34,274 bases of DNA from a virus (IMGVR_UViG_2740892426_000003); one strand, 5' to 3'. Positions 1,820 to 29,501 are shown, counted from the first letter of the stretch. Translations and numbers: made by a program. The notes: a model not told the origin generated them from the letters alone.

Positions 1820-1828
1820 AACATTTCC

Positions 1829-14099: not shown

Positions 14100-14169
14100 A
14101 AGGCGGGTCTCCATCAGGTCAATAAATGACGATGGTGGCACAGAGCGAAAAGGGCGGTGACGGCTTCCA

Positions 14170-14192
14170 CTTGTAACCACTGGCACTACAAG
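14170..14192 (-). promoter_or_regulatory. late-promoter activator site (CTTGTA-N11-TACAAG dyad) upstream of FI
   Basis: Dyad centred about 80 bp upstream of the FI start, just downstream of dam. Confidence 0.6.
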
Positions 14193-14204
14193 CAGAAGCA
14201 GTTT

Positions 14205-14963
14205 TTAATTCAGGATAATCAATTCTGATGTGGTGCTGGCTGGCTTTCCACCTACAGTATAGCGAATCCCTACCGTTGAAAATGTCAGGCCGTGGAAGAT
14301 ATCGCGCATTTCCGGGATGTCATTAACCGAGATAATCATCCGGCCCTGCATGGTGCGCGCCAGCTCTGCCATACGCTGGTACTGCTCAAGGCCAAATGGT
14401 ACGCCGTAGCCTTCGGTTTTCCAGTATGGCGGGTCGCAGTAGAACAGGGTATGCGGGCGGTCATAGCGGCGAATACAGTCGACCCAGTCCAGATTTTCAA
14501 TACAGACGCGCGCCAGCCGCAGATGGGCGGCGGATAAATCCTCTTCCATACGCAGCAGGTTCAGGCGCGGCGGTGAGGTGGTGGCGGTACCGAACGTGCG
14601 GCTTTCCACCTTACCGCCGAATGCCAGCTTTTGCAGATAGTAGAAGCGCGCCGCGCGCTGGATGTCGGTCAGCGTTTCTTCCGGGGTGATCTGGAGCCAG
14701 CGGTACATTTCGCGACTGACCAGCGACCATTTAAACTGGCGGACAAACTCTTCTAAATGGTGCTGGAGTACGCGGTAGAGGTTGGTAACGTCACCATTGA
14801 TATCGTTCAGCACCTCGGCCTGAGCGGGCTGTTTCATAAAGAACAACGCCGCCGCCCCGCAGAACGGTTCAACGTAGCAGCGGTGTTTGGGAAACAGCGG
14901 CAGAATGTGTTTTGCCAGCCTGCGCTTACCGCCGATCCACGGAATAATGGGTAACGTATTCAT
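14205..14963 (-). CDS. dam: Dam-family N6-adenine DNA methyltransferase (orphan, inside the late tail-fibre operon)
   Basis: 252-aa ORF with SAM-binding FCGAAALF and catalytic DPPY (YCDPPYW). Sits between G and FI, the position of Z/fun in P2. Confidence 0.85.
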   Translation of the reverse strand: MNTLPIIPWIGGKRRLAKHILPLFPKHRCYVEPFCGAAALFFMKQPAQAEVLNDINGDVTNLYRVLQHHLEEFVRQFKWSLVSREMYRWLQITPEETLTDIQRAARFYYLQKLAFGGKVESRTFGTATTSPPRLNLLRMEEDLSAAHLRLARVCIENLDWVDCIRRYDRPHTLFYCDPPYWKTEGYGVPFGLEQYQRMAELARTMQGRMIISVNDIPEMRDIFHGLTFSTVGIRYTVGGKPASTTSELIILN

Positions 14964-15427
14964 ATTGTCAATTTTCCAGATCGACTGCAGACCAGCGCAT
15001 ACAGCAGATTAGGTGAATAACGCCAGCTATCACGCAGATGCAGAAATTCGGCGCAGAACTCGCTGCAAAACAGGCGCTCCTGCTTGCCCTGACTGAGTAA
15101 CACAAAACCAATGGCACCCAGCCAGTCGTAACCTTTATCGTCGTGCTGACGAAAAAAGGTCTCCAGTGTCAGCGGATCGGCGTTGATCGGGAGTAAATCC
15201 CATTTCTCAATCGGCAGCGGCATTCTCTTGCTGCGCACGCCTTTATCCCGTACCGATGATGAGTAACAGATAAACAGGCCATCCGGCAGGCGTTCGACCA
15301 GTTCACAGTGAGAGTAAGGGCCGCGCGTGACCTGTCGCGTCAACCAGTCGGAGAGCCGTGCAAGGCTGAAAAAGCGTTCAGCCCGGCCACGGTAGAACGC
15401 CGCGTAAACCTGACTCATGGTTGCCAC
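14960..15427 (-). CDS. hypothetical 155-aa protein with conserved His/Cys motifs (possible permuted papain-like hydrolase), cargo at the G-FI locus
   Basis: Overlaps the G stop and dam start, so co-transcribed with the tail-fibre operon. YSHCELV and LFCSEFCAEF motifs; no firm family assignment. Confidence 0.6.
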   Translation of the reverse strand: MATMSQVYAAFYRGRAERFFSLARLSDWLTRQVTRGPYSHCELVERLPDGLFICYSSSVRDKGVRSKRMPLPIEKWDLLPINADPLTLETFFRQHDDKGYDWLGAIGFVLLSQGKQERLFCSEFCAEFLHLRDSWRYSPNLLYALVCSRSGKLTI

Positions 15428-16122
15428 CCTGACGAGTAGTCGTAATCCATAACCGCCTGTACCTCCGTCAATGCTTCAACGGTGGCAATATGCTGCTGGG
15501 CAGCGGCGAACAGGCGCATATCGTGCGCCATTGTTTCGGTTTCAAACCGGGCGGCGATTTCGTTGGTCAGTTCAATCAGGCCGTGATTTTTGGTCTGCCA
15601 CATTAAGCCCGTCGGTATTTGTTTTGCCATGCCCATTTTGGTGAGCGAGAGCTGCTGGATGCGGCTGTTAGCGTCGCTATGGAAATGGTGATCGTCGATG
15701 ATGATGTAGTCAGCGGTGATCCGATCGCGATACTGCTTTATTTCCGCCACCTTTGCCTGTCGGGCTTTTTCGATATCGGGCCGCCAGCGTTTGCCGTCCC
15801 AACGGACAAAGGTGTTATCAGGCTTCAGCAGAGTGACGTTATCCGGCAATGGCCCCAGATGATGAAGCTGTACCTCACTGCCCGCATCGGTATCAAACGC
15901 GGTTTTACCGCGATGATCTTCTACCGCAAGCCATGTTTCTCCGTTGAATGTCAGGGCAAAGCCGCTCTGGCATTCGGGCGGTTCGATAGTGGTACAGCAT
16001 TCCGGTAAGCCGGTGTTGGGGGCGATATAGGTGTCGCTGACGCCGATAAATTCCTGAGTATCTGCCGCGTAGTTAAAGATGAGCAGGGTTTGCGGTTCGT
16101 CGGAAAATGCGAATGTGCTCAT
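15415..16122 (-). CDS. G: tail fibre assembly protein (P2 gpG-like)
   Basis: 235-aa ORF immediately downstream of the tail fibre gene. Confidence 0.8.
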
Positions 16123-18002
16123 GCCAGCCTCACGATATAGTTGAAAGCGATATTTTTAACGGTGTTTTCGGCGTTCCCGGCGGCGTTCACCGTAATAGTG
16201 TGGCTGTGGGAACCCAAGGCGATAGTGTGGTTATGCGCGCCGATAGTCAGCGAATGAGTATGAGCGCCGATGGCTACTGTGTGAGTATGGACACCGTCTG
16301 TACTGGTTCTGAATTTGTAGTTATCCCAGTCTGTGTCTGCAGACCCCTGATTATTACGGGTACTGTCGAAGTAACCGTGACGCCCACCGCTGGCTTCACC
16401 CCATCCGCTGTCGTGGTTGTGAGCACCGGCTGACGCTGTTGATTTTGTCCCGTAGTCAAACGCGCTGGTATTTTTAGTACCCAAATCAGTGGAACTGGCG
16501 GTTTTAGTGCCTAAATCCGTGTTAGCGGCGCTGGCGGTGTGACCATGAGATTTAACGCCATCCTGTTCCTGAGACAGTATCGTGCGTCCGCTGGCGGGCT
16601 TCCCCTTGATTGTCCAGCCGCGCATATCCGGGATTACACCGGAGGGGTAAGCGATTGCCAGTTTAGGGTAGGCGGTTTTATTGAAGGACTGACCGACCAT
16701 CAGTGCATAGCCGCTAGGGATGGCATCGGATGGCCATGGAATGGGAGCGCCTGCTGGGTAGAGTTCTTCTGGTAAGTTTCTGCTATTAAAATCTCGCCGC
16801 CAGCCGGGAGAGTATTGTGCTCCGTGATCGATATAGATAAATTGCGCGTTGGCTATGCCTTTGGTCGATGTAGAGGGGGTAGTAATGCGGATTGTTTTTG
16901 CCGACTCAATACCCATGACCTCAATGACAGCGCCAGCCAGTTGAATATCGCCACAGCCTGTATCAGAAATGACTTTATTCGAGGCATAACTCCATGAACC
17001 TTTACACATCCAATAGGGGGTACTGAAAGCTCCCTGAACACTCAGCCAGCTTAGAAATTCAGTCGTAGTCCATGAGGCATCATTTCCACCAATAGACAGA
17101 CTGCCGCTGAAGGCACGGCAGCGGCTATTGGCATTATCCATTACTATTTTGACAGCCTTCGGTGTTGCGGCCATCGCCTCACTAACGTTATTGGTTTCGC
17201 TGTTAAGCTGGATTATCCCTTTGCGCATGGTGGTCGCATCCAGTGCGGTATATTTTCCATTAGCCAGATCGTAGGCCGCTTTCACGGCTTTAGGCGTGGC
17301 GGCCAGCGTTTCGCTGATACTGTCGATGGAGCTACTAAGCTGGACAATCCCTTTACGTGAGGTGGTGGCATCCAGTGCGGTATATTTTCCATTAGCCAGA
17401 TCGTAGGCTGCTTTCACGGCTTTGGGCGTGGCGGCCAGTGTTTCGCTGATGCTGTTGGTCGCACTGCTTAATTGAGTAAAACCTTTGGCAGTTAACGTGG
17501 CGTCAGGATGGTTACGGGACTGCGCGTGGCGAGTCAGGCTTTCATCCACATACTGCCTCGTTGCCAACACTACGGCAGGGTCGATTTTCAGTTCCACGTT
17601 TTCCGTATGGGAGACAATCAACACCATGCGGATAATCTGCGTGCGACCCGAACCTTCGATTAGCTGCGGCTTGTAGGTTGGCGGGCAGTTGCCGACGGCA
17701 ATCAGCCGGTCGTGCTCGTCGTACAGGCCAATTTCTCTGATCCACCATCCGCCTACGTCCTCCGGCAGCACCTGTTCGGCAATAATCTGGTTGGAGTTGT
17801 TAGGGTCAATACTGAGCGTATTCAGCGGTGCACGTCGACGTTCGTTGACTAGCCGGGTTTGACCGGTCTCCGGCGTTGGCAGGTTACCGTTTCCGTCGCC
17901 CACGGCCATTTGCGTCAGATGAAGAGGTGAACCCTGTGTGGTGGCGGTCGCCAGCGCGGATTCGCCAGTAGTGGTTAATAGCGTGAAATAGGTAGCGCTC
18001 AT
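16119..18002 (-). CDS. H: tail fibre protein (P2 gpH-like) with internal tandem repeats and His-x-His-rich C-terminal tip
   Basis: 627-aa ORF; three tandem ~39-aa repeats ([30 protein letters not shown]) and a C-terminal run of HxH motifs ([31 protein letters not shown]). Confidence 0.85.
17127..17486 (-). repeat. three tandem ~117-bp repeats inside the tail fibre gene
   Basis: Near-identical nucleotide repeats visible directly in the sequence (catccagtgcggtatattttccattagccagatcgtaggc...ggcgtggcggccag...gtttcgctgat twice, plus a diverged third copy). Coordinates approximate. Confidence 0.7.
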
Positions 18003-18613
18003 GGGGCGATCCTTAGCGTATCAATCAGATGCAGCGCAGCCCCGCGGTAGTCACGGCCCACGCTGTATACATGTTCGGGAATAAAGGGATAAACGGTGAG
18101 CGTATCGCCGGTATAGTTCGTCGCGCTGAACCAGACGTATCCGTTGCTTTGCAGGCTGATCGCCAGTCCGATTAAGTGGCGTGAACAGGGTTTTGCATCA
18201 TCGATCAGGCGCTCCAGCTCTACATACATCTGCTCGGTGATGCCCTGTTCGCGCACGCCGACTTCCAGCGCGAAGGTGCCGGGAATACCTTCCGGGCGCA
18301 GTTGCCACCATTCGGTTACCCGGATAAGGAAACCGAGCGGTTCCACCGCACGCTGCAGTGCGCCGATGGTGCCTTTGTGCTGATGGATGTAGAAAGAAGC
18401 AGCAATCACCTGCCGCTTGGTATCGGCTGGCCAGTTTTCATCCCAGCGGTCAACGGAAAACGCCCATGCCAGATAAGGCAACAGCGCGGCGGGGCAGCTA
18501 TCCGGTTGCCACAAGCTACGCAGCGGGACTGGCATTTGTTCAGTCAGACTGCCGGTTTGCGCCAGATTCTGCTCCAGCGAGCTGGCATTGTTGGGGAGCA
18601 GGGAGCTATTCAT
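17999..18613 (-). CDS. I: baseplate assembly protein I
   Basis: Start set at [15 protein letters not shown] (preceded by GGGGGAAG), overlapping the J stop; C-terminal region resembles P2 gpI. Confidence 0.85.
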
Positions 18614-19517
18614 CGCTTCCCCCGATGGCAATTTGCCATCCGGTGCAGTAGCTGGCCTGCGTTTTGTTGATAATGACATCAACGGCAGGGGAGAGCAGTT
18701 CTACGCGCTGAACGCCGGTGACATGCAGTGCGGCGTAAATCGCGCTGCGGCGAATATCGCGCCCGATTCGATGCTGGTCATTGACGTAGCTTTGTAGCCG
18801 CTGCTCGGCGGCCTGCCGAATGGGTTCCTGCTCCGGGCCGGGATAGCAATAAAGTACGGCATCAATCTGATACGGGATCACTTCGGCGGACTGAATGGTT
18901 GGGCGATCGCCTACCGGACGAATATCAATATCGTTCAGGGCGGAATCGACTATCGCCAGCAGTTCTGCGCTGGCCAGCCCGTTGCCTTCGCGGGAGAGTA
19001 CCGACACGGTGACGTAACAGGGATGTGGACTGATGGCGGAAACGTCAGCAATGCGCCCATCTGCGCTGCGGGCGTGATATTCGTAGGCGGCGGTCGGGCC
19101 TGCGACGGACAGACCTTCAAACGCCTGCTGTGCGCGCATTCGTAAATCGCTGTCGGATTCATGAACCGGATCAACGGGCGGTATCGCCGTACTGTCTCCG
19201 GGAGAGATTTGCAGGCGAAAAACCTTAAAGTTAGCGACCAGATTATCCAGATCGCGCCCGGCGGCATGGGCCAGCATATTAGCAACGGCGGCTTCATTGA
19301 TGCGTACCCGCAGCGCCATCTCTAAGTAAGTATTTTCCTGCAACAGCTTGACGAAGGGTTCTGATTCATAGCCCAGCGTGCGGGTAACTTCTGCTTGCTG
19401 TTCGGCTGGATACAGGCTGATAAAGCGCTGCTTGCGGGCGGTGAACAGGGTTTCAAAATCGAGTGTTTCCACCACATCAGGGATGGGTAACTGGCTTAAA
19501 TCGGTCAGCGCGCTCAT
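18606..19517 (-). CDS. J: baseplate protein J
   Basis: Start set at MSALTDLSQLPIPDVVE (recalled P2 gpJ N-terminus), overlapping the W stop; ends ...GGSDE as in P2 gpJ. Confidence 0.9.
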   Translation of the reverse strand: MSALTDLSQLPIPDVVETLDFETLFTARKQRFISLYPAEQQAEVTRTLGYESEPFVKLLQENTYLEMALRVRINEAAVANMLAHAAGRDLDNLVANFKVFRLQISPGDSTAIPPVDPVHESDSDLRMRAQQAFEGLSVAGPTAAYEYHARSADGRIADVSAISPHPCYVTVSVLSREGNGLASAELLAIVDSALNDIDIRPVGDRPTIQSAEVIPYQIDAVLYCYPGPEQEPIRQAAEQRLQSYVNDQHRIGRDIRRSAIYAALHVTGVQRVELLSPAVDVIINKTQASYCTGWQIAIGGSDE

Positions 19518-19864
19518 GGACGTCTCCTGTCGATCGGAATGGAGAATGCCCACGGCTGCCCGGGGATATCGGTACGTTCGGCTTCAATAGTGACGCTGAG
19601 ATCGGCATTTTCCGCAGCAAAGTCCACGCCGATAATCTCGAGGCGGGGTTCCCAGCGCGTCAGCGCCATAACCACCGCCGACATCACCCGCAGCCGGGTG
19701 CCGCCATCGTTGGGCTGGTCGATCAGGTTGCCGATCAGTGAGCCATAATCGCGACGCATCACGCGCGTACCTACCGGCGTGGCCAGAATATCTTTTACGG
19801 ATTGCTTAATGTGCAACTCATCGCTTAATGCTCTGCCGGTTTCGGCGTTCATACCGAGGTACAT
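19514..19864 (-). CDS. W: baseplate protein W (gp25-like wedge subunit)
   Basis: 116-aa ORF between V and J. Confidence 0.85.
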   Translation of the reverse strand: MYLGMNAETGRALSDELHIKQSVKDILATPVGTRVMRRDYGSLIGNLIDQPNDGGTRLRVMSAVVMALTRWEPRLEIIGVDFAAENADLSVTIEAERTDIPGQPWAFSIPIDRRRP

Positions 19865-20463
19865 TACTGCGGCCCTCCGGTATTGCTACCGCCGCGCTCT
19901 ACGCCTGTGTGCGTGTGGGTATGGACGGTGACGCCGTTGGAGGTAAAACTGCCGCTGCTGTGGGTGTAAGTGCCTTTAAGCGTGCCGCCTTTTTTAACCG
20001 ACAGCGTGGCGGTTTCCAGATGCTGGGTGCAGACGACGAGCGGTGTATCCAGCGTGACGCGGGTGTTGGCTTCGACCAGTGCGGTCTTGATGCCGGTGGC
20101 TTTTAACGCGCTGGAGCGCGGATCATATTCAATCACCGCACCATCGGGGTAAACGCTATGGTGAACCTGTTCATCCAGCAGCGGGGCGGGGTTGGCGTCA
20201 GAGTAAATGGCAGGAAGCGCCACGGCGGTGGTTAACTCACCGCTTAAACAGAGCAGTAACACCTGTTCGCCTGTTGATGGTCGCCACCACGTCCGGGCAT
20301 CACCGGCGCGCAGCGTCAGCCACGGTATCCAGTTGGTGGTCAGTTCACCAGTGTGAATGCGTACTCGATCGCCCTTCACCTCTTCAACGGTGCCGGTACG
20401 GATCAGGTTTTCAATGCGCCGGTGCAGCTCGGCGAGGTTGGCTGGGTGGTTTGCGTCGCTCAT
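19864..20463 (-). CDS. V: baseplate spike/hub protein V
   Basis: 199-aa ORF; C-terminal HTHTHTG metal-binding repeat typical of spike tips; first gene of the V-W-J-I-H-G operon. Confidence 0.85.
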   Translation of the reverse strand: MSDANHPANLAELHRRIENLIRTGTVEEVKGDRVRIHTGELTTNWIPWLTLRAGDARTWWRPSTGEQVLLLCLSGELTTAVALPAIYSDANPAPLLDEQVHHSVYPDGAVIEYDPRSSALKATGIKTALVEANTRVTLDTPLVVCTQHLETATLSVKKGGTLKGTYTHSSGSFTSNGVTVHTHTHTGVERGGSNTGGPQ

Positions 20464-20507
20464 GCCGGAATCATTGGGATTCGCGGGCGAAGAGGGAAGG
20501 GCTAAGG

Positions 20508-20530
20508 CTTGTAGGATAATGGGCTACAAG
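20508..20530 (-). promoter_or_regulatory. late-promoter activator site (CTTGTA-N11-TACAAG dyad) upstream of V
   Basis: Perfect hexamer inverted repeat with 11-bp spacer; same element found upstream of FI, X and in the O/P divergent region. Confidence 0.6.
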
Positions 20531-20533
20531 TAA

Positions 20534-20555
20534 AACGCCCCTGAGTAGGGGCGTT
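20534..20555 (-). terminator. rho-independent terminator downstream of hicB
   Basis: 8-bp GC-rich stem (ACGCCCCT/AGGGGCGT) with 4-nt loop, followed on the minus strand by UUUUAC. Confidence 0.6.
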
Positions 20556-20569
20556 GAACGAAAAAGAGC

Positions 20570-20905
20570 TTAACCGTGCGCAGCCTTCATCAGTGTATCG
20601 TTAATCCACTGGTTAACGCTTTTACCGGAGACTTCTGCCGCAACGTTAATGGCAGAGTGAATTTCAGGTGGAATACGCAGGCTGATTTTTCCGCTGGCCG
20701 GACGCAACGGCTCCCGGCCCCGTTCCTCGCAGTAAGCCAGATAGTCGTCTACCGCCTCTTCAAACGCTTTACGCAGATCGGCAACATTATCGGCATGAAA
20801 GCCAATGACATCCCGAATGCCTGCAACGTGACCAACAATGCATTGATCTTCATCGCTGTATTCAATTTTTGCGGCATAGCCTCTATATGTCATGGTATTC
20901 ATCAT
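20570..20905 (-). CDS. hicB: HicB-family antitoxin (RNase-H-like N-domain + C-terminal RHH)
   Basis: 111-aa ORF; YRGYAAKIEYSDEDQCIVGHVAGI...DLRKAFEEAVDDYLAYCEERGREPLRP is a HicB pattern; C-terminal ISLRIPPEIHSAINVAA is RHH-like. Confidence 0.8.
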   Translation of the reverse strand: MMNTMTYRGYAAKIEYSDEDQCIVGHVAGIRDVIGFHADNVADLRKAFEEAVDDYLAYCEERGREPLRPASGKISLRIPPEIHSAINVAAEVSGKSVNQWINDTLMKAAHG

Positions 20906-21165
20906 GGTGTTACCCCTACAGCTTCAAGGAATGTTCTGGCATCGCGAACCTGATAGGCTTTCGCTTCTTTTTCCGGGTGTGGACGATGAAATGAAGCCAC
21001 AACCTGATTAATTTCAAACCTGACGCGGGAACCGTTTCCTTCCGTAGCAATAGCCCCCAAAGCAATAAATAAGGCTTCTATTTTTCGCCATTCCAGCGTG
21101 ACAGGTGTTGGCGTAGAAAAAACAGCTTGTAAGGTTTTTTTATGTTTGGCGCTTAACGTATTCAT
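20902..21165 (-). CDS. hicA: HicA-family toxin (putative mRNA interferase)
   Basis: 87-aa ORF overlapping the hicB start; GNGSRVRFE...FHRPHPEKEAKAYQVRDARTFLEAVG resembles HicA/YcfA, with Arg where the usual GSH histidine sits. Confidence 0.65.
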   Translation of the reverse strand: MNTLSAKHKKTLQAVFSTPTPVTLEWRKIEALFIALGAIATEGNGSRVRFEINQVVASFHRPHPEKEAKAYQVRDARTFLEAVGVTP

Positions 21166-21213
21166 ACAGGGTATTTTCCATAAGTTATTTTATTCTTCCG
21201 CCAAGATATAATG

Positions 21214-21236
21214 ATGATATCATTTTTTGATATCAT
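21214..21236 (-). promoter_or_regulatory. tandem palindromic operator-like sites (TGATATCA x2) in the hicAB promoter region
   Basis: Two copies of the palindrome TGATATCA, 13 bp centre to centre, between the S stop and the hicA start. Confidence 0.5.
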
Positions 21237-21237
21237 T

Positions 21238-22142: not shown

Positions 22143-22392
22143 CGATACGCTCCTGACAGCTAATCGTCATATCCACCTGCGCAGCGCACTGGTGCCACGC
22201 GTTTTCAGTTTCCAGCAGTGCGCGGCTTAAATCCTCATTACTCTGCGGTTGCAGCGCCGGAAGCTGGCAGGGCGTCAGTTTCGGGCAATTGACGGTAAGC
22301 CGCACTGCCGGTAATGGTGGTGTGCTGGTGCAGGCGGATAATATCAGCGAGCAAAGCAGTATCAGCCCATTCACGAAGCTGTTGATTTTCAC
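22117..22392 (-). CDS. lysC: LysC-like o-spanin lipoprotein (Rz1-like), overlapping the lysB 3' end in another frame
   Basis: 91-aa ORF with signal peptide and lipobox (LILSAC), Pro-rich mature region; overlapping arrangement as in P2 lysB/lysC. Confidence 0.6.
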   Translation of the reverse strand: MKINSFVNGLILLCSLILSACTSTPPLPAVRLTVNCPKLTPCQLPALQPQSNEDLSRALLETENAWHQCAAQVDMTISCQERIDAQSAAHP

Positions 22393-22687
22393 GTTTCAGT
22401 TTCTCCAGTTGTTGATTGTGCTGCCGTAGCTGGTCATGGGCGTCGGCGGTTTGCTGTTGCAGCGTCAGGTATGCCTGCTGGTCGGCGTCGGCCTGTTGCT
22501 GGAGTTCGTCCAGTTCCTGCACTTTTGTCATCAGGGATTCGGTCAGGCTGGCAATCTGAGTGTCGGCCAGCCTGATGTGCTGCTGCTGTTCAATAAGCTG
22601 TTCCTGCTGCGTCATACGCTGCCAGTTCGTCCAGAGCAGCATCACGCCGAGCAACAGCAGCGGCGCGGCTTTTATCCAGCCCATCAT
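22238..22687 (-). CDS. lysB: LysB-like i-spanin (Rz-like)
   Basis: 149-aa ORF with N-terminal TM segment (AAPLLLLGVMLLW) and Q/E-rich coiled-coil periplasmic domain, downstream of the endolysin. Confidence 0.7.
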   Translation of the reverse strand: MMGWIKAAPLLLLGVMLLWTNWQRMTQQEQLIEQQQHIRLADTQIASLTESLMTKVQELDELQQQADADQQAYLTLQQQTADAHDQLRQHNQQLEKLKRENQQLREWADTALLADIIRLHQHTTITGSAAYRQLPETDALPASGAATAE

Positions 22688-23274
22688 GCTGCCGCCTTAC
22701 TGAATTTTTCGAAGGCGATCGCCAGCTTCGTATCGTACTGGTTGCGTTTGTACTGTGGCCCGTTGTAGCGGCGGGCGAACTCTGGCCAGTTCTGTACCTT
22801 CATCGCGTCGTGGATCTTCGAATTGGCCTCAACGAAGCGCACGAAGGCGTCAAGCTGCATCTGCTCGCTGTCGTTCATCTGCTTTTCAAAGTCGGCGGCA
22901 GAGGCGTAGCCCAGCGCTTTCCAGTGAAAGCCCATAATCTGGAACAGTCCCCAGCTTGCGCTCTCAATGGCGGCGGTGCTGTGGATCTGTTTCGCCAGAT
23001 TCAGACGGTAGTGCTCACGGCTTCCGCCCTGATAGCCGCCTGTGCTCTTGTTCACCAGATCCGGGTCATTCTGCGCCAGCCGGTCGGCGTCCAGTCCGTG
23101 GCTTTTTAACTGGCGGTACATGATGTGGCGTTCAAACAAAAGAGCCGGGTGGCCATCGGGCAGGAAGCCGTGAGATCGGGCTTCAACCTCCTGCACCGCC
23201 TGTAATGCCGCCAGCGGGATACCCAGATACAACGCGGCGGCCTGCTGCTGATCATGGGTGAGTGTACGAGTCAT
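22684..23274 (-). CDS. endolysin (predicted muramidase)
   Basis: 196-aa soluble ORF between the holin/LysA-like genes and the spanins; catalytic family not assigned by eye. Confidence 0.7.
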   Translation of the reverse strand: MTRTLTHDQQQAAALYLGIPLAALQAVQEVEARSHGFLPDGHPALLFERHIMYRQLKSHGLDADRLAQNDPDLVNKSTGGYQGGSREHYRLNLAKQIHSTAAIESASWGLFQIMGFHWKALGYASAADFEKQMNDSEQMQLDAFVRFVEANSKIHDAMKVQNWPEFARRYNGPQYKRNQYDTKLAIAFEKFSKAAA

Positions 23275-23566
23275 GGCGTGGCTCCTTCGGGTGATGACGT
23301 AAGGGGTTAATCAGACTGGCGACGTTGCCGCGTGCAGCGCTCAGGCAAATCAGCAGCACGATGTTGATGGCGGTTTCGGCGATAAACACGTAGCGGTACA
23401 GGCTGAAACAAATCAGTACCGCCACCGATGCGGTGCAGCACATCAGCAGCCACGCCAGCCAGCTATACAGCGGGCGATAGGTAGTACCGTGAATGCGGCG
23501 ATAGAGGAACAGGCGGACGGTAATCAGCAGGCAAATAATGGCGTTAAGGCTCAGGATTAGTTTCAT
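23252..23566 (-). CDS. LysA-like small membrane protein (putative antiholin/lysis regulator)
   Basis: 104-aa ORF with three hydrophobic segments, between holin and endolysin. Confidence 0.55.
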   Translation of the reverse strand: MKLILSLNAIICLLITVRLFLYRRIHGTTYRPLYSWLAWLLMCCTASVAVLICFSLYRYVFIAETAINIVLLICLSAARGNVASLINPLRHHPKEPRHDSYTHP

Positions 23567-23952
23567 TTGCGTCCCCTTAAAAAGTCGAGCAGTTGACCGG
23601 GGTTATCCAGTTGTCGGATGGCCCATAGCAGCGCCTTGACGGTAAGCGCCGATGAGAGCAGCGCCCCGATACCGGGGGAGACTTTTTCCATCAGATGCTG
23701 CGGCAGATATCCGGCGACCAGCGCGGTAAACAGGTCGGCGGTCAGCAGGCCGATCACAAACGCCACGCAGAAGAAAATGATGCGCAGGAACAGGCCGATC
23801 TCTTTTTGCGAAATCACCAGCAGCAGCGCGCCACACAATGCGCCGAGCACTACCGGAGCCTGTAGCGTCGGGAACAGCGTGGCAATGGAGAATGCGCTTA
23901 CGGAAGCGGCGACGACGGTGCCGGTTACGGGTTCGTTCATAGTCAGTCCCAC
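23563..23952 (-). CDS. holin
   Basis: 129-aa ORF with multiple TM segments and charged C-terminus, immediately after X. Confidence 0.7.
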   Translation of the reverse strand: MGLTMNEPVTGTVVAASVSAFSIATLFPTLQAPVVLGALCGALLLVISQKEIGLFLRIIFFCVAFVIGLLTADLFTALVAGYLPQHLMEKVSPGIGALLSSALTVKALLWAIRQLDNPGQLLDFLRGRK

Positions 23953-24146
23953 AGGTTGATTCGTTGACGTGCGGTGGCGGGAGCCTGTTCCGGTACGTTA
24001 ACCGCCGTACCGTGTGGCAGGCGCAGCGGCAGTTCGCACAGGCGCGGGTTGTTCTGGTAAAGCTGTTCGACAATCCCGGCAGTGCGCCCGAAGATGCGCC
24101 AGCAGAGCTGATCGAGCGTTTCGTTTTGCAGGCTATAGACAATCAT
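23943..24146 (-). CDS. X: tail protein X
   Basis: 67-aa ORF at the X position with a LysM-like pattern (ETLDQLCWRIFG...). Confidence 0.8.
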   Translation of the reverse strand: MIVYSLQNETLDQLCWRIFGRTAGIVEQLYQNNPRLCELPLRLPHGTAVNVPEQAPATARQRINLWD

Positions 24147-24218
24147 GGTGTTTCCCGCGCGGCGTCAGGTGATGCGGGGATGGTGGCACAGGGGCGGGAA
24201 GTGAAGGGAAGGCTTCCG

Positions 24219-24241
24219 CTTGTAACTGAGGGCAGTACAAG
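24219..24241 (-). promoter_or_regulatory. late-promoter activator site (CTTGTA-N11-TACAAG dyad, extended to a 13-bp inverted repeat) upstream of X
   Basis: GCTTCCGCTTGTA...TACAAGCGGAAGC, centred about 84 bp upstream of the X start. Confidence 0.6.
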
Positions 24242-24260
24242 CGGAAGCGATTGGCGAGGG

Positions 24261-24581
24261 CTATGCCTCGTCGCTGTCGGTATTGATGATTTTCAGTTCA
24301 GCGGACTTCTGGAGCTGGATCAGCGCCGGAAGCAGAAGCGCGGTAGCCGACAGGCCATGCCCTAGCTGGCACAGGCTTTCAGCGGAGAATTCCAGCACGT
24401 TGCTGTCGGCAAAGGAGACGAAGGTTTTACCCAGAAAATGCAGGCCGTGACATAGTCCGGCGTAGCACTCTTCGCTGCTGTTGGCCAGTAGCAGAGTATC
24501 GTCGGCGTTCAGGTGTGAAATATCCATCTTGCGGATCGCGTCCGCCAGTTCAGAGGACAGAATATTGGTTTCAGGCACCAT
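24261..24581 (-). CDS. hypothetical protein (106 aa)
   Basis: ORF in GC-rich backbone-like DNA; overlaps the upstream 68-aa ORF by 11 nt; no motif recognised. Confidence 0.4.
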   Translation of the reverse strand: MVPETNILSSELADAIRKMDISHLNADDTLLLANSSEECYAGLCHGLHFLGKTFVSFADSNVLEFSAESLCQLGHGLSATALLLPALIQLQKSAELKIINTDSDEA

Positions 24582-24777
24582 GGCGCACCTCCAGCGGTTT
24601 GCAGGAGACGAACACCAGCGGGAAACCCGCCAGCAGGTCGCGAGCCTCGATTTCAGTTGTTGCCAGTACAGACACCAGACGCAGGGGCTGGATCTCGCGC
24701 AGCAGGCGGTTGGAACGGGCGTTCAGGAAGGTGTAGAGCTTTGAATGTGCGCGTATGTTACTATTAGCGGTAGCCAT
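24571..24777 (-). CDS. hypothetical protein (68 aa)
   Basis: Small ORF upstream of and overlapping the 106-aa ORF; the pair could be one frameshifted gene. Confidence 0.35.
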   Translation of the reverse strand: MATANSNIRAHSKLYTFLNARSNRLLREIQPLRLVSVLATTEIEARDLLAGFPLVFVSCKPLEVRHGA

Positions 24778-24866
24778 AGCATTAGCCTCTTTAATGTTGT
24801 GGTCAGAGGCCCGTCGGTGTTGGTAGCACCTGCGGGCTTCGTTCGTTTAAGGGTTGCAAAACATCA

Positions 24867-24918
24867 CGTAATTGCGATGTAATTACAACTACATCATTCT
24901 AAGGATTTTGTAATTACA
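24867..24918 (+). promoter_or_regulatory. operator-like palindromes (2 x TGTAATTACA plus a CGTAATTGCG half-match) upstream of the RHH gene
   Basis: Perfect 10-bp palindromes at about 24878-24887 and 24909-24918, 31 bp centre to centre; the second abuts the ATG. Confidence 0.55.
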
Positions 24919-25089
24919 ATGTCAAGTGAAAAGGCTAAAACAGATCAGTACCAACTTCGTCTTGCTCATGAATTTAGAAAGCAGCTTGAAGAACAGGCTC
25001 GTAAAGATGGAGATACCTCTCTCGCAACATGGATAAAACGCGTTTTGCGTAAGGAACTTCAGTCACGAGGTATTGAACCCAAAGGATAA
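24919..25089 (+). CDS. Arc/MetJ-type ribbon-helix-helix DNA-binding protein (56 aa; below the ORF-track size cutoff)
   Basis: Hand translation MSSEKAKTDQYQLRLAHEFRKQLEEQARKDGDTSLATWIKRVLRKELQSRGIEPKG; the strand-then-two-helices pattern resembles Arc repressor. Confidence 0.65.
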   Translation: MSSEKAKTDQYQLRLAHEFRKQLEEQARKDGDTSLATWIKRVLRKELQSRGIEPKG

Positions 25090-25190
25090 TTACGGAGATA
25101 TCAAGCAGCGCTAAGAAGTTAGGATTATTTGTTCAGCCCAGATTAGTCGATATGCACTGATTAACTTAAACATTGTGTGTAGGAGGTGTT

Positions 25191-25844
25191 GTGGATATTG
25201 AATTTTTTCTTAAAGAGCGCACAAGATTCGTTACTTATTTCTATGAAACGGCTGCTGCACCATTTGTTAACATCATGAATGATATTGAGAATGAAGTGGA
25301 ACCTTATATTCAGCCGTATGGTGAGAGTGATGAACCAGCTTTTTTAGATGAATGGTTAGATGCAAAGTCGGGATTAGAAACCTGTGGGCACCATGCATTA
25401 TCGATGCTTTCGTCTTCTCTTCAGTTGTACCTGAAGGCGTGGGTAGATCGCTTAGGATATCATAGCGTGAAATCTGATATAAATTTCAAGAAGGGTTGGT
25501 TTAATGGCTATCGTGAAATTTTCAACAAAATTGAGTTGGAAATGGCAAAATGTCCTGCAAATTTGGAAATAATTGAACAAATTCCCTTGGTGAGAAATCG
25601 TGTCCAGCATCCTGAGGAACTTACCTCAATTAATATTTCTCACTCAAAAAATGACTTGGAAAAATATCCTCGCCCATACTTTATTCAGGAGTGTGAGCTA
25701 CTTTTGGCTTCCGAACAGGAAGAAAAATCGTGGTTATTCCCACCTACAATATCCCCGACTAAAGAGAAAATATTCGAAGCTATCAGAAATGTTGAAATGC
25801 TGTGCTCTTGGTTAGAGTCTGAGTATTGGTCGGCTCTTGACTAA
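25191..25844 (+). CDS. hypothetical 217-aa protein, AT-rich orphan cargo (candidate effector or toxin partner of the upstream RHH)
   Basis: Start set at GTG 4 nt after a consensus AGGAGG (ORF track begins at TTG 25173). Markedly AT-rich versus the flanking head and lysis genes; no motif recognised. Confidence 0.65.
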   Translation: MDIEFFLKERTRFVTYFYETAAAPFVNIMNDIENEVEPYIQPYGESDEPAFLDEWLDAKSGLETCGHHALSMLSSSLQLYLKAWVDRLGYHSVKSDINFKKGWFNGYREIFNKIELEMAKCPANLEIIEQIPLVRNRVQHPEELTSINISHSKNDLEKYPRPYFIQECELLLASEQEEKSWLFPPTISPTKEKIFEAIRNVEMLCSWLESEYWSALD

Positions 25845-25879
25845 ATGTAGAATAGAGTAAGTCAGCGTCAAATGAAAAC

Positions 25880-25897
25880 AGCCCGACGAATCGGGCT
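25880..25897. terminator. hairpin terminator between convergent cargo genes
   Basis: 7-bp stem AGCCCGA/TCGGGCT with CGAA loop; T-rich on the minus-strand side, A/T-rich on both sides. Confidence 0.45.
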
Positions 25898-25933
25898 ATT
25901 ATGGCTATCAGGCAAACACTACCTTCAAACTCA

Positions 25934-26170
25934 TTATGCCGCCTCAATACCCGCTCTGGTTAACATATAGTGGCCCCAGTGGGTTTTCTTCAGATAACCG
26001 GCCAGTTCCATCTGTGTCACAATAAATTCAGCGTTAACTATTTCTATATCTGCGTAGTCGGCCAGATCGCGCAGCGGCCATGTGCTGCGAACGCCGACGC
26101 TAACTATGGTATCTCTGATGCGGCGAGCGGTATCGGTCATTGGGCGGGTTCTGGCTGCCTGAATAGTCAT
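25934..26170 (-). CDS. hypothetical small protein, possible winged-helix DNA-binding protein
   Basis: Start set at ATG (MTIQAARTRP...) preceded by GGGGA; immediately downstream of L. Confidence 0.45.
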   Translation of the reverse strand: MTIQAARTRPMTDTARRIRDTIVSVGVRSTWPLRDLADYADIEIVNAEFIVTQMELAGYLKKTHWGHYMLTRAGIEAA

Positions 26171-26285
26171 GGTATTTTCCCCTGTAAGTTCTTTCGTTGG
26201 GTCAGACACTAACTCTGGTGGGGAAGGGGCATCCAGCGTTCAGATGAGGCGATACGGTGATGCGCATCGCATATCCGTACTCTTT

Positions 26286-26753
26286 TTATACCAGAACAAA
26301 CGTGCTACGCGGCTTGCCCAGAATATCCCGCACTGCGAAGCGGGCATCGCGCGCCAGATCGTCGGCGGTGCTTTCCTTTTGTTCCACCAGTTTGCTGCCG
26401 TGGGCGGTGGCATCAAAGTTACGGTAGCGTTCCAGCAGGTTTGCGTGCGTCAGGCTGTACACCGCGTGGCGGTAGCGGTGCAGGTTAACGCTTGCGCCGT
26501 CCAGTCGTTCGGTCGTGGTTTCCGCAATGCAAGTTGTGCCACGGTTTTCCTGTTCCAGCCGCCATTCCCGCAGGTCGTCGTTTACGCTGGCCAGCGCAAT
26601 CAGCAGCGCCTCGCGCAGCCGTTCGTTGGTGACGGTGCTGTCCAGCCGTTGGGTCGCACGCAGATGTTGCGTATCAATATCGGGAAAGAAAGGGTGGTTG
26701 CTGATAACCAGCCCCGGCAGACTGGCGGCGGGGGCAACCTGAATAAAGCTCAT
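26286..26753 (-). CDS. L: head completion/stabilisation protein L
   Basis: Start set at MSFIQVAP (preceded by AGGGAG); FFPDID...ERYR pattern resembles recalled P2 gpL. Confidence 0.85.
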   Translation of the reverse strand: MSFIQVAPAASLPGLVISNHPFFPDIDTQHLRATQRLDSTVTNERLREALLIALASVNDDLREWRLEQENRGTTCIAETTTERLDGASVNLHRYRHAVYSLTHANLLERYRNFDATAHGSKLVEQKESTADDLARDARFAVRDILGKPRSTFVLV

Positions 26754-26838
26754 TATATTCTCCCTGTTCGGCGGTGGACGGCGGGCGTTGCAGTGGTATA
26801 ACCACGCGCGGCCAGCCGTGCCGCCGGTCGTGAGGGTC

Positions 26839-27492
26839 TCACTCGGTAGGCTGACTGTTGCGAATTTGTCGCTCCAGTTGCTCAATCAGTTTTTTCACGC
26901 CGACGTTCTCATCCAGTTGTAGCGCGCGCTGGAACTGCGCCAGCGCCTCCTGCGGCTGGCTTTCGCTGTGTGCCAGCCCCAATGCCTTGTGCAGGCGGGC
27001 GCGAACCTGATCCGGCATGTCTTGGGAGGCTAACAGTCCGGCAAAGGCCAGCAGGCTGTCCAGCGCCACAAAGGTACCGGCGGCAAGCTGTTTCAGAGCG
27101 GTGTCGGCAACCTCTTCAGCCACCATGCAGGCGGTCTGCCGTTGGTACTGATCCGGCGTTACCCAGCTGTGTTTCAGGGCGTGTTCCGCCATGGGGTAGG
27201 CAGCGGGAAAGTCGCCGGTATCCAGCGTCCAGAGCAGCACCGTCATAAACACATCGTCCTGATGCTTGCTGTCAGCGGCCAGAACGCCGCTTACCCACGG
27301 CTGGTAATCGGGCAGCAGTTCACCCTTAACCTCGATTTTACGTTCAATGGACTGGATCGCTTTCAGGCGGCGTTTATCGGTTGCCAGCTTTGCCAGCATC
27401 AGTTCATAGCCGCTGGCGTAGGTCTGGTTTTCCTGTTGATTTGCGGCCTGCGCCTGATGGCGCAACAGGTGGCGGCGGGCAGGCGTCATCAT
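26839..27492 (-). CDS. M: terminase endonuclease (small) subunit M
   Basis: 217-aa ORF; LKAIQSIERK...ELLP...QDDVFMTVLLWTLDTGD...GVKKLIEQLER aligns by eye with recalled P2 gpM. Confidence 0.85.
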   Translation of the reverse strand: MMTPARRHLLRHQAQAANQQENQTYASGYELMLAKLATDKRRLKAIQSIERKIEVKGELLPDYQPWVSGVLAADSKHQDDVFMTVLLWTLDTGDFPAAYPMAEHALKHSWVTPDQYQRQTACMVAEEVADTALKQLAAGTFVALDSLLAFAGLLASQDMPDQVRARLHKALGLAHSESQPQEALAQFQRALQLDENVGVKKLIEQLERQIRNSQPTE

Positions 27493-28508
27493 GCGTCTTT
27501 ATCCTCAAACTTAATGTTTTCAAACAGGCAGCCGCAGCCGAAGTCTTCCACCACAAATGCATCGTTGGAGGACTCGAAGTTCTCTACCCGGTCACGTTTG
27601 GGGTTATCAATAATGGCGCGGCGGCGGGTGCCTTTCTGGACATAGATAGACAGGTTGCTGAAGGCGGTGACCAGAATGGTGTTGCGCGGGAAACCCGGCA
27701 CGCGCACGGCAGGGCGTCCGCCGATGGTTTTCTGGCTGACCAGAATCTGCCCCGCCAGTTTTTCGCTGTTTTCATTGTGCTGGTTGAGGATCGGGAAGTA
27801 TTTGTCGTGCAGGACGCCACGGCCACAAATGGCGACCAGATCTGCGCCGTCGACGTGCCATTCGTCAATCAGGTTTTCTTCGCCGTCATTGACCATGGCG
27901 TCCAGATTCTCATAGTCGCCGCCTTTGCCAATGATGATTTTGCCGGAACCTTCCACACCTTCGTTCATGACGCGTTCCGGGGCGTGGTCGCGGTACTGTT
28001 GCAGCCAGCCCTTGTTAACGTCCTGTAGAAGGGGGTAACGCTGGAAGTCGGTCTGGGCGGCAACGAGGATACCGTTGAAGCCAATCAGGATGCGGTCTAA
28101 TCCCTGTCGCCGGGTGATGCTGTCGCGCACGCGGATCTGAAAATCCGGGTGCACGGCCCATGCGTCCAGTTTGGCGTATTTCAGCGCGGTGTCGTAGTTG
28201 GTTTTTTCGCAGCGGTAACGATTAGTCGTCATCGACGTGGGGTCGATGGGTTCACGCTCACGCTGGCTGGTATCGGTGCGACTGGCCGTGGGGCGATCAA
28301 TGCCGATACCGACTTTTTCACCTTCCTGATCCACCACTTCATGGACGTTGATTTTGGTCAGGAACTCCACGGACGCCTGAATTTTAGTTTCCAGCGTCTG
28401 CTGTACGGAAGGTTCTACCGTGAATTCGACGGCGGCGCTCTGGACACCGGACAGCCCGGCGACGGTTTCAACGTAAGCGTTGTATTTTAAGCGGGTTTCG
28501 TTACGCAT
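27489..28508 (-). CDS. N: major capsid protein N
   Basis: 339-aa ORF; MRNETRLKYNAY...LSIYVQKGTRRRAIIDNPKRDRVENFESSN resembles recalled P2 gpN throughout. Confidence 0.9.
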   Translation of the reverse strand: MRNETRLKYNAYVETVAGLSGVQSAAVEFTVEPSVQQTLETKIQASVEFLTKINVHEVVDQEGEKVGIGIDRPTASRTDTSQREREPIDPTSMTTNRYRCEKTNYDTALKYAKLDAWAVHPDFQIRVRDSITRRQGLDRILIGFNGILVAAQTDFQRYPLLQDVNKGWLQQYRDHAPERVMNEGVEGSGKIIIGKGGDYENLDAMVNDGEENLIDEWHVDGADLVAICGRGVLHDKYFPILNQHNENSEKLAGQILVSQKTIGGRPAVRVPGFPRNTILVTAFSNLSIYVQKGTRRRAIIDNPKRDRVENFESSNDAFVVEDFGCGCLFENIKFEDKDA

Positions 28509-28518
28509 CGGGGGTTCC

Positions 28519-29346
28519 TTAACAGTCGGTTTTCAGGTCGGTGTTGCCACCGGTGGCAGGCTGGCGCGATGGTGTGGCCGGTTGCTTTGCAAGCTGAGTT
28601 TTCAGCGTGGAATAATCGGCCTGTAGCTGCTGATGCTGCGTTTGCAGTTCAGACAGCTCAGCGCGAATTTGGTCGACCTGTTCGCTACAGAACGTCGCTA
28701 CTTCCTCCACCGCCAGATGCACGTCGTCCCGTTGCTGGTCGTCGTGGTTCTGCTTTTTACTTAACAGCGCCTTGATGCGGGTAAACAGCGATTCGCCGCT
28801 GCTTTCCTCCACTTCTTCAAACTCCAGTTCAATCTCTTCTGCCACGCTGAAAATGTTCTTCGGCGAGCGCTTACGCGCCGCCAGCGGGTTGCTCTGCGCG
28901 CTGGCGCAGAAGGAGAGCATTTCGGTGCCGAGACTGGCCGGATCGTCGGTGACTGCCAGCCCGACCAGATAGGCTTTGCCTGTATCGGCAAATTTCGGAT
29001 CGACTTCCACCGAGGTATAAACCTTCTGCCCTTTGCGGTTCATTTCGACCAATGAATCCGTTGGGGCCAGACGTGCCAGCAGCGCCAGTTTGCCTTTCAG
29101 GGGGCCGTCTTCGGCGATCTCTTCTTTCTTCACCATCGCCACGTCGCCGTAGCGCTGGAACGGGCCGTCCGGCAGGATGCCTTTCAGGTGCTCCAGATTA
29201 ATGCGCGCGCCGTACACTTTTGGGCTGTATGTATCGGCCATTTGCTCGATCCACTGGCGTTCAATAGTGCGCTTGTCGCAGGTTGCGCCTTCTACGGCGA
29301 TACGCACCCATTTAGAGAGCAGTTTTTTCTTTGGCTTTTTGTCCAT
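28519..29346 (-). CDS. O: capsid scaffolding protein O
   Basis: 275-aa ORF upstream of N, first gene of the O-N-M-L operon, divergent from P. Confidence 0.85.
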   Translation of the reverse strand: MDKKPKKKLLSKWVRIAVEGATCDKRTIERQWIEQMADTYSPKVYGARINLEHLKGILPDGPFQRYGDVAMVKKEEIAEDGPLKGKLALLARLAPTDSLVEMNRKGQKVYTSVEVDPKFADTGKAYLVGLAVTDDPASLGTEMLSFCASAQSNPLAARKRSPKNIFSVAEEIELEFEEVEESSGESLFTRIKALLSKKQNHDDQQRDDVHLAVEEVATFCSEQVDQIRAELSELQTQHQQLQADYSTLKTQLAKQPATPSRQPATGGNTDLKTDC

Positions 29347-29418
29347 AACGTTCAGTCCCGGCGTTGGCTAAATAAGCGAATGGTCGGGTAGTCCTCCGCT
29401 ATCAGGCAACGGGCTTCG

Positions 29419-29441
29419 CTTGTAATCATCCGGGTTACAAG
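29419..29441. promoter_or_regulatory. late-promoter activator site (CTTGTA-N11-TACAAG dyad) in the O/P divergent region
   Basis: Same dyad as upstream of FI, V and X, centred 72-84 bp from the O and P starts. Confidence 0.55.
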
Positions 29442-29501
29442 CGGCATTGCTACGCGCAGGCAGCGGCTTGTTTACGCTGACGGCAGAAACGAGAGGACGT
29501 T

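Follow-up and report, generated by a model that had tools for sequence, protein, structure and literature searches.

We analysed a 34,274-nt stretch of viral DNA (hereafter the window) and searched it for the inverted repeat CTTGTA-N11-TACAAG. The pattern scan returned four exact matches, at 14170-14192, 20508-20530, 24219-24241 and 29419-29441, and these coincide to the base with the four 23-bp dyads listed in a preliminary description of this DNA. All four lie between genes. The FI dyad is flanked by the stop codon of a Dam-like methyltransferase gene (14205) and the FI ATG (14099), the V dyad by the stop codon of hicB (20570) and the start codon of V (20463), and the X dyad by the stop codon of a cargo ORF (24261) and the start codon of X (24146); the O/P dyad separates the divergent start codons of O (29346, minus strand) and P (29502, plus strand). 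An intrinsic-terminator hairpin of hicB (20534-20555, minus strand; nine pairs, six of them G-C, followed by a T run) abuts the V dyad, and the earlier placement of this copy between the hicAB terminator and V is thus borne out. The occurrence of the dyads is non-random: the chance level estimated from shuffled sequence was 0.01 exact matches, and none of 100 shuffles reached four. The preliminary description had proposed such a motif scan and had named extra copies outside promoters as evidence against its reading; the whole-window scan revealed no further copies at up to two mismatches. It had also counted the spacing as TGT-N13-ACA, correctly: all four sites were recovered in a scan for TGT-N13-ACA and none in a scan for TGT-N12-ACA. 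An Rfam search of the window matched no RNA family. A neighbouring intimin-like gene pointed at first to a Salmonella host, an idea we rejected because the guaA gene next to the prophage shows 100% identity to that of E. coli.

We placed -10 hexamers and transcription start sites by analogy with the geometry of P2 promoters. At PF (minus strand), the dyad is centred at 14181, 82 nt upstream of the FI ATG, an offset equal to that of P2 pF, and the putative -10 hexamer CACCAT (14132-14137) predicts a start near 14125. At PV (minus strand), the centre at 20519 lies 56 nt upstream of the V ATG, with the putative hexamer AATGAT (20470-20475), CAAT at the offset that it has in P2 pV, and a predicted start at 20463. 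At PX (minus strand), the centre at 24230 lies 84 nt upstream of the X ATG, the putative hexamer is CACCAT (24180-24185), and the predicted start is near 24173. The O/P dyad, centred at 29430, is 84 nt away from the O start codon and 72 nt away from that of P, and would serve both strands: PO on the minus strand, with GACCAT (29380-29385) and a start near 29373, and PP on the plus strand, with TACGCT (29473-29478) and a start near 29485. A -10-like hexamer of the form NANNNT is present at all five putative promoters and ends 48-50 nt from the dyad centre, which would put the centre near -55 to -57. A scan for the sigma70 consensus found no promoter at any of the four dyads. Because one O/P site is common to two promoters, the four dyads would give five promoters in all, with the X copy as the additional one.

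We compared this geometry with the mapped promoters of the annotated P2 genome (NC_001895; pP, pO, pV and pF). The P2 dyads lie about 55-57 bp upstream of the start, as predicted for the window, and the site centres are at identical offsets from the V ATG (56 nt) and the FI ATG (82 nt). The P2 record lists three activator sites for four late promoters, with one common to pO and pP as here, and places the pV start at the first base of the V coding sequence. The V mRNA of the window is probably leaderless too, by analogy with the P2 annotation. In both phages, cargo genes immediately precede the V and F sites.

The window, a P2-like prophage, also encodes a candidate for the protein that would act at these sites. 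A gene at 4572-4802 (minus strand), second in an early operon divergent from the repressor gene, encodes a 76-aa zinc-finger protein of the Ogr/Delta family, the presumed activator. Pfam PF04606 (Ogr_Delta) matches at 4572-4820 on the minus strand with an E-value of 1.2e-19 and 70.4 bits, against a cut-off of 26.3. The family motif CX2CX22CX4C (PMC3931495), shared with the P2 activator, is present as C4, C7, C30 and C35, and all four cysteines are invariant in alignment with P2 Ogr and 186 B. Identity to these two proteins is 33-35% (35% to P2 Ogr), and the nearest Ogr homologues among sequenced phages, at 41-47% identity, are those of the Ralstonia phages phiRSA1 and phiRSY1. The product belongs to a PHROG class labelled 'transcriptional regulator', and its E. 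coli copies carry the RefSeq annotation 'ogr/Delta-like'. The gene sequence occurs in about 1,990 collection blocks, but in 4 of 5,426 complete E. coli genomes. The preliminary description had not placed an Ogr/Delta gene within the window.

Ogr-type activation is the known late-gene switch of P2-like phages, and Ogr-dependent promoters of the P2 type are defined by binding of the activator and by dependence on it and on the RNA polymerase alpha subunit. We consider it very probable that the four dyads are binding sites of the prophage's own Ogr/Delta-type zinc-finger activator and serve five late promoters. The preliminary description had read the dyads as Ogr-type late-promoter marks, and the intergenic positions and P2-like offsets support it; activator binding, the start sites and the dependence on the activator we infer from the homologous systems of P2 (Ogr), 186 (B) and P4 (Delta). 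As the gene order suggests, derepression would switch on the early operon (an Arc-like gene, ogr and a primase gene) and so yield the activator. Bound at each dyad, with the centre some 55-57 bp before the transcription start, the activator would then recruit RNA polymerase to promoters that lack a -35 element and offer only a weak -10 hexamer. The O/P dyad would drive both divergent promoters, and transcription from PV would probably begin at the V ATG and give a leaderless mRNA. The X dyad would restart late transcription of X, the lysis genes, R and S, after the O-N-M-L transcript had ended at a terminator upstream of it. Nothing in this scheme alters the known mechanism; its one unusual point is the extra promoter before X.

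Palindromic sites are also typical of dimeric repressors, and the window encodes several other small DNA-binding proteins. We therefore weighed the possibility that the dyads are operators of another DNA-binding protein that may repress late genes, such as the HTH repressor (5126-5461), the Arc-like early protein (4839-5045), an AlpA-like protein or a host factor. Against this, the early control region, from the repressor gene to the early operon, has no copy of the dyad even at two mismatches. The dyads sit about 55 nt upstream of the predicted starts, which is the position of an activator and is clear of the core promoter, and P2-like phages whose early regions differ share the core motif. 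We judge an operator function to be very improbable.

We compared the activator-site arrangement with those of other phages, taking the P2 and P4 consensus statements from secondary citations and from the annotated P2 and 186 records. Among the differences from P2 are the site sequence and the position of the activator gene. P2 has TGT-N12-CCA at pF and pO/pP and TTGT-N11-ACAA at pV, whereas the window has the perfect palindrome CTTGTA-N11-TACAAG, and P2 ogr follows gene D and has its own promoter, whereas the ogr of the window is inside the early operon. Phage 186 (NC_001317; B sites for pV/p12 and pJ) likewise has a site common to the divergent head promoters, and its terminator t45 immediately precedes the B site of the tail-sheath promoter, as the hicB terminator precedes the V dyad here. 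In contrast, the 186 sites read GTTGT-N12-CCA rather than N13, and the B gene follows D. P4 Delta (promoters Psid and PLL), compared by description, belongs to the same activator family, but it is a fused double Ogr-like protein encoded on a satellite, unlike the 76-aa protein of the window. The published consensus is TGT-N12-ACA, as cited in PMC3931495, and none of the four sites of the window fits it.

The N13 spacing has a published precedent in phiRSA1 and phiRSY1, for which the presumed Ogr motif is TGTTGT-N13-ACAACA with the core TTGT-N13-ACAA (PMC5694545). A check of the RSA1 genome confirmed this core at the O/P, V and FI regions, and the core and its spacing at these regions are as in the window. 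The early region of RSA1 is also laid out like that of the window: ogr is part of the early operon, the replication gene is of the primase type and the integrase gene lies at the far end. The outer bases differ, being TGTTGT(A/G)...(C)ACAACA in the Ralstonia phages and CTTGTA...TACAAG in the window.

Megablast of the late region against sequenced phages gave short, weak matches only, and relatives were therefore sought by protein and pattern scans. The half-sites do not vary among relatives from Edwardsiella ictaluri, Erwinia and E. coli or among related contigs of viral and metagenome origin, while the 11-nt spacers vary freely. Of 55 distinct P2-like FI upstream regions, about 52 have TGT-N13-ACA at the same position, and N13 is the majority spacing in our survey of 80 P2-like FI loci. 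The V site of one relative, L006, has N12. A viral-contig scan with CG flanks returned mostly unrelated A/T-rich phages, in which the matches were ordinary terminator hairpins between A/T runs, and we set these aside as chance. A single metagenome scan added almost no new dyad variants. Acidovorax phage Acica and a Shewanella group encode Ogr yet use quite different motifs, so membership of the Ogr family alone does not predict the site. We also rejected Ogr similarity as a site predictor, as the closest homologue, that of Acica, has an unrelated motif.

The X dyad is where this lineage departs from the classical plan. In P2, L and X overlap and X has no promoter of its own; no promoter lies between the L and X homologues of 186; and L and X abut in RSA1, which leaves that phage without an X promoter, only four classical promoter regions being reported for phiRSA1 and phiRSY1. 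In our P2-like survey, the X dyad was absent from the other 76 of 80 L-X loci and was seen only in this lineage. By analogy, the X site would thus be an extra, fifth promoter relative to P2. Between the L stop and the PX dyad lies a cargo island of five ORFs (24254-26283), bounded by alignment to an insert-free E. ictaluri prophage. It contains a sigma70-like promoter (24925-24896, minus strand) and an internal terminator (25900-25877, minus strand), the one at which the O-N-M-L transcript would end, and its content differs among relatives. In the E. ictaluri-type relatives, which have no insert, a perfect X dyad follows the stop codon of L at a distance of 14 nt; in the Erwinia outgroup, an insert and the dyad occur together. 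The preliminary description had held that the insert split the O-N-M-L-X unit and left X with its own activator site. This stands as a description, with a terminator in the insert and a dyad just after it; as a causal order it is one possibility, the dyad being present also in relatives without the insert. Separately, we tested for an origin of the X promoter by duplication of the F promoter and found no support: their identity outside the half-sites is 0.62, against 0.46-0.62 in other promoter pairs.

The F and X dyads are embedded in longer inverted repeats. The PF repeat (14163-14199, minus strand) has 13-bp arms, GCTTCTGCTTGTA and TACAAGTGGAAGC, with two pairs that are G.U in the sense RNA, and the PX repeat (24212-24248, minus strand) has perfect 13-bp arms, GCTTCCGCTTGTA and TACAAGCGGAAGC. 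Folded as RNA, they reach -20.2 kcal/mol (z -4.1) and -25.1 kcal/mol (z -9.0), respectively. Both are stable G+C-rich stem-loops of the intrinsic-terminator kind, but the stem is not directly followed by a U run (downstream sequence CGTCACCGCCC for F and CTTCCCTTCAC for X), and our terminator scan reported neither hairpin. The Erwinia orthologue of PF keeps the pairing with different bases. Because the F and X dyads are strong hairpins, part of their conservation could have another purpose.

In its strongest form, this line of argument would make the dyads primarily RNA or DNA hairpins, that is, terminators or processing or stability elements at operon ends, and not activator sites. The F and X copies do directly follow co-oriented genes without a separate terminator, their folds reach -20 and -25 kcal/mol, and the Erwinia F site retains its extended pairing despite changes on both sides. 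The other two copies fit poorly: the genes on either side of the O/P dyad diverge, so that no transcript should reach it from upstream, and the V and O/P dyads have arms of only 6-8 bp around an 11-nt loop. Furthermore, none of the four dyads is followed by a T run, the half-site sequence, and not just the pairing, is invariant across sites and phages, and the distances to the start codons equal those of P2 activator sites. Hence, we regard it as highly unlikely that hairpin formation is the primary role of the dyads.

A weaker form is compatible with binding of the Ogr-type activator at all four dyads. Here, the F and X activator sites would each sit inside a hairpin with arms of 13-15 bp that also stops or attenuates transcription coming in from upstream cargo genes (the Dam-like methyltransferase gene, and c68-c106 or L), and this hairpin would stand in for the terminator found as a separate element before the site in other P2-like phages. 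Long arms are found only at the two sites directly after a co-oriented gene, and the V site has short arms and, in the window, L006 and the E. coli relative L725 alike, follows a canonical terminator. Pairing holds in 98.6% of cells over 11 distinct F and X sequences, three pairs are altered on both sides, and the wobble pairs are valid in the sense RNA only. Outward extension of the arms by at least 4 bp was seen in none of the 17 FI loci with a terminator right upstream. Several observations weigh against the idea: (i) the hairpins lack a U tract; (ii) the Erwinia F site is the single sequence, and its lineage the only one, that supplies the three two-sided changes, and the covariation test rests on 11 distinct sequences since the metagenome scan yielded almost no new variants; (iii) the association in the survey is weak and, by a rough estimate, not significant; (iv) a distant phage, L025, has a dyad with 11-bp arms in the untranscribed O/P region; and (v) template-switch correction of quasi-palindromes could lengthen the arms without selection. 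We therefore put this forward as a tentative addition that we think is unlikely. Slightly more doubtful still is the full dual-purpose proposal, in which the FI and X sites would act as an RNA hairpin, its pairing kept by compensatory change, that insulates the tail and lysis operons from cargo read-through, and as a DNA switch that starts late transcription. Expression in the lysogen is probable for some of this cargo.

These results provide a regulatory map of five putative promoters, four sites and predicted starts for a P2-like prophage family, so far unstudied, that is found in E. coli, Edwardsiella and Erwinia. The textbook TGT-N12-ACA fits the P2 and 186 coliphages, but N13 is the commoner spacing among the relatives sampled here, which is relevant to scans of prophages for late promoters. 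A cargo island in the middle of an essential operon may be tolerable by means of an activator-dependent restart promoter just downstream. If the dual-purpose proposal is true, dual sites together with the lineage-specific X promoter would explain how L-X can be a hotspot for toxin-antitoxin and defence genes without loss of late expression.

We scanned the 34,274-base window for CTTGTA-N11-TACAAG and found exactly four matches, against 0.01 expected from dinucleotide-preserving shuffles. All four are intergenic. The F dyad (14170-14192) precedes the FI ATG (14099) and follows a gene for a Dam-like methyltransferase, whose stop codon is at 14205. The V dyad (20508-20530) is flanked by the stop codon of hicB (20570) and the start codon of V (20463), and the X dyad (24219-24241) by the end of a cargo ORF (stop at 24261) and the start codon of X (24146). 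The O/P dyad (29419-29441) separates the ATGs of two divergent genes, O at 29346 on the minus strand and P at 29502 on the plus strand. The preliminary description had placed the dyads at these coordinates, and each matched exactly. Its TGT-N13-ACA spacing also held, as all four sites were present in a scan for that pattern and absent from a TGT-N12-ACA scan. Stray copies, which it had named as a refutation, were found nowhere else in the window, even at two mismatches.

The window holds a P2-like prophage whose late genes are on the minus strand. Pfam and PHROG searches found tail spike V, tail protein X, head completion protein L, tail protein D and hicA/hicB, as well as an integrase, a Toprim primase and an HTH repressor. 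The presumed activator is an Ogr/Delta zinc-finger protein (4572-4802, minus strand; PF04606, 70.4 bits versus a cut-off of 26.3) with a CX2CX22CX4C motif. Identity is 35% with P2 Ogr and 33% with 186 B, and the three proteins share all four cysteines. Its gene is the second in the early operon, which diverges from the repressor gene, whereas in P2 ogr follows gene D. The early region (1-5461) also contains the Toprim primase, in place of the A-type nickase of P2, together with DUF7673, an AlpA-like gene and the integrase. This layout is that of Ralstonia phage RSA1, and P2 and 186 are laid out differently. Because the late genes are P2-like and the early region RSA1-like, we regard the phage as a mosaic. 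The activator gene sequence is on record in approximately 1,990 blocks of a large sequence collection; this prophage occurs in only 4 of 5,426 complete E. coli genomes, and E. coli guaA adjoins an otherwise identical prophage.

We compared promoter geometry with that of P2 and 186. The P2 record annotates three activator sites for four late promoters: pO and pP share one, with starts 55-56 nt to each side, while pF and pV each have their own, the pV start being the first base of the V coding sequence. In the 186 record one annotated B site is again shared, and another stands at the tail-sheath promoter, immediately preceded by a terminator. The FI and V ATGs lie at +82 and +56 from the site centre, respectively, in both the window and P2; in the window, the O and P ATGs lie at +84 and +72 from the O/P dyad centre. 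A NANNNT hexamer (CACCAT, AATGAT, CACCAT, GACCAT and TACGCT) ends 48-50 nt from the dyad centre at all five implied promoters, which puts the centre at about -55 to -57. A sigma70 consensus scan found no full promoter at any implied late promoter, as expected if these promoters are activator-dependent. By analogy, the dyads are placed as in P2-type late promoters; the one between O and P probably acts in both directions, and the V mRNA is probably leaderless. At F, X and O we also note a GGAAGCC/GAAGCC box immediately beyond the proximal half-site, 12-19 nt from the dyad centre on the promoter side. The O/P regions of loci L004 and L012 also bear on this box, and a similar cgaagccc follows an unrelated GGTAT-N10-ATACC dyad in a Shewanella group of P2-like phages. 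The box may be a conserved core-promoter or polymerase-contact element.

Relatives recovered by protein and pattern scans comprised Edwardsiella ictaluri prophages, an Erwinia MAG prophage, four E. coli genomes, and contigs of viral or metagenomic origin. Every relative has its dyads at the same positions with invariant half-sites, and the 11-nt spacers vary freely (at the V site, for example, GCCCATTATCC, ATCATCTGGAT, ATTAATTAATC and GCCTACCTCCT). The same dyad occupies the O/P and V positions in two distant, G+C-rich P2-like contigs. The V dyad of one relative (L006, 9764-9785) has a 10-nt spacer, not 11 (TGT-N12-ACA), with the distance from proximal half-site to ATG unchanged at 44 nt, which suggests that a one-bp spacing change is tolerated. 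Conserved half-sites around free spacers are the signature of a protein-binding dyad. A purely structural role as a hairpin would leave the invariant half-site sequence unexplained, and it fails for the O/P and V sites. Binding by a protein other than Ogr is unlikely, since no dyad copy lies in the early control region, the dyad stands where an activator would bind, and phages whose early regions differ share the motif. Geometry, conservation and the Ogr/Delta gene in the window together support the Ogr-type late-promoter reading offered earlier.

The spacing differs from that of the coliphages. P2 and 186 sites are TGT-N12-CCA, P2 pV is TTGT-N11-ACAA, and the literature consensus is TGT-N12-ACA (PMC3931495). 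The N13 form is already published for phiRSY1/phiRSA1: phiRSY1 has TGTTGT-(X)13-ACAACA in four late promoter regions, an exact match to phiRSA1 (PMC5694545). The RSA1 genome has TTGT-N13-ACAA at the O/P, V and FI regions, and RSY1 and RSA1 encode the closest Ogr homologues among sequenced phages (41-47% identity). We surveyed FI upstream regions in 80 viral contigs (FI 65-99% identical). A dyad was detectable in 55 distinct regions, and approximately 52 of these had TGT-N13-ACA, mostly as TGTA-N11-TACA; exact CTTGTA-N11-TACAAG occurred in several unrelated lineages. By these counts N13 prevails among the surveyed relatives, and the coliphage N12 is a minority. Site specificity varies across the Ogr family, as a Shewanella group of Ogr-encoding phages has GGTAT-N10-ATACC and Acidovorax phage Acica a CAGCAGC-type repeat as motif.

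The V copy had been described as lying between the hicAB terminator and V. Indeed, of the terminators predicted in the scanned region, the top one (20555-20534, minus strand) is located after hicB and immediately adjoins the dyad; hicAB have a sigma70-like promoter of their own (21241-21214, minus strand). In P2, orf30 occupies the position of hicAB, and at the same junction in E. coli L725 an 'abortive phage resistance protein' gene is followed by a hairpin and then the dyad. The hicA-proximal promoter carries two copies of a direct repeat, ATGATATCA, that may be an operator for HicB.

In P2, 186 and RSA1, L and X abut or overlap with no promoter between them. Among 80 loci found via gpL homologues, L and X were at most 30 nt apart in 57, separated by 126-247 nt (mostly 247) with no centred dyad in 19, and preceded by a dyad 84-85 nt before X in 4, all of the window's own clade. 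Alignment with an insert-free E. ictaluri prophage delimited a cargo island of ~2 kb (~24254-26283) between the L stop and the X dyad, confirming that the X copy lies downstream of the L-X insert. The first island gene is followed by a terminator (25900-25877, minus strand); the last two have a strong sigma70-like promoter (24925-24896, minus strand). The island holds a RelE/ParE pair in E. coli L725, a Doc-family toxin in another E. coli strain and a different 305-aa ORF in the Erwinia phage; two ORFs adjoining the X promoter are conserved (PHROGs 20855 and 19484). E. ictaluri prophages lack the island and have a perfect X dyad 14 nt past the L stop. Because the Erwinia outgroup has both, the simplest history is loss of the island in the E. 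ictaluri lineage from a clade ancestor that possessed island and X dyad alike, either of which may have come first. The X site would restart late transcription through X, two holin-like genes, a muramidase, spanins, R and S.

The L-X junction is variable in the window and four related loci (L063, L064, L003 and L006), with RelE/ParE plus an HTH protein, a Doc-family toxin plus a YlcI/YnfO protein, or unknown ORFs. Three other P2-like loci (L183, L192 and L211) and about 15 more share a constant 247-nt L-X gap with no TGT-N12-14-ACA dyad in it; the gap presumably contains a small inserted ORF read through from the O promoter. Within the island, a palindrome, TTGTAATTACA(A/T), occurs twice (24877-24888 and 24908-24919; 0.03 expected), overlapping the promoter of the last two genes (c68-c106) in a region that diverges from an Arc-like ORF (24919-25089). 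The palindromes are probably operators of the island's own repressor, and we take their half-site likeness to the late dyad (spacing 2) as coincidence.

The F and X dyads form the core of inverted repeats with 13-bp arms, GCTTCYGCTTGTA-N11-TACAAGYGGAAGC, that fold as sense RNA at -20.2 (F) and -25.1 kcal/mol (X); arms at V and O/P reach only 6-8 bp. F and X are the two sites right after a co-oriented gene without a separate terminator, none being found ahead of the F dyad. At the Erwinia F site the outer bases differ (GCTATTG/CAATAGC) but still pair. Across 11 distinct sequences, 98.6% of cells were paired and three pairs had changed on both sides, all three from that Erwinia sequence. Neither hairpin is followed by a U tract, and arms of 11 bp also occur at the dyad in the untranscribed O/P region of a distant phage. 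None of the 17 surveyed FI loci with a canonical terminator just upstream had arms extended outward by 4 bp or more, a weak association. A second, insulating function of these hairpins is conceivable but rather unlikely; the long arms could also stem from quasi-palindrome correction, or the invariant outer GCT/AGC could make additional contacts with protein.

Other cargo was also apparent. A D12-class (Dam-like) adenine methyltransferase and a 155-aa ORF (PHROG 1128; 14205-15427, minus strand) occupy the interval from the tail-fibre assembly gene to the FI promoter, where P2 has Z/fun. Between the repressor gene and gene D (5492-7578, plus strand) lie an NA37 nucleoid-associated-protein domain protein and a RelA/SpoT-domain protein; where the Ogr protein is identical, other prophages have C14 peptidase, ThsB-TIR and WYL proteins, or DUF6037 and NA37, at this spot, which looks like a hotspot of anti-phage defence genes. 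Two ORFs lie past the portal gene (33204-34274, minus strand), one with DUF5384 and one with a glycine zipper and a weak TraT-like match; they may be cargo for surface exclusion or lysogenic conversion, or host DNA.

As read from sequence, the dyads most likely represent the familiar Ogr-type switch for late promoters, here in a prophage lineage that is unstudied. It departs from the known scheme in two modest ways: a predicted fifth promoter, specific to the lineage, before X and beside a cargo hotspot, and the long-arm sites at F and X.
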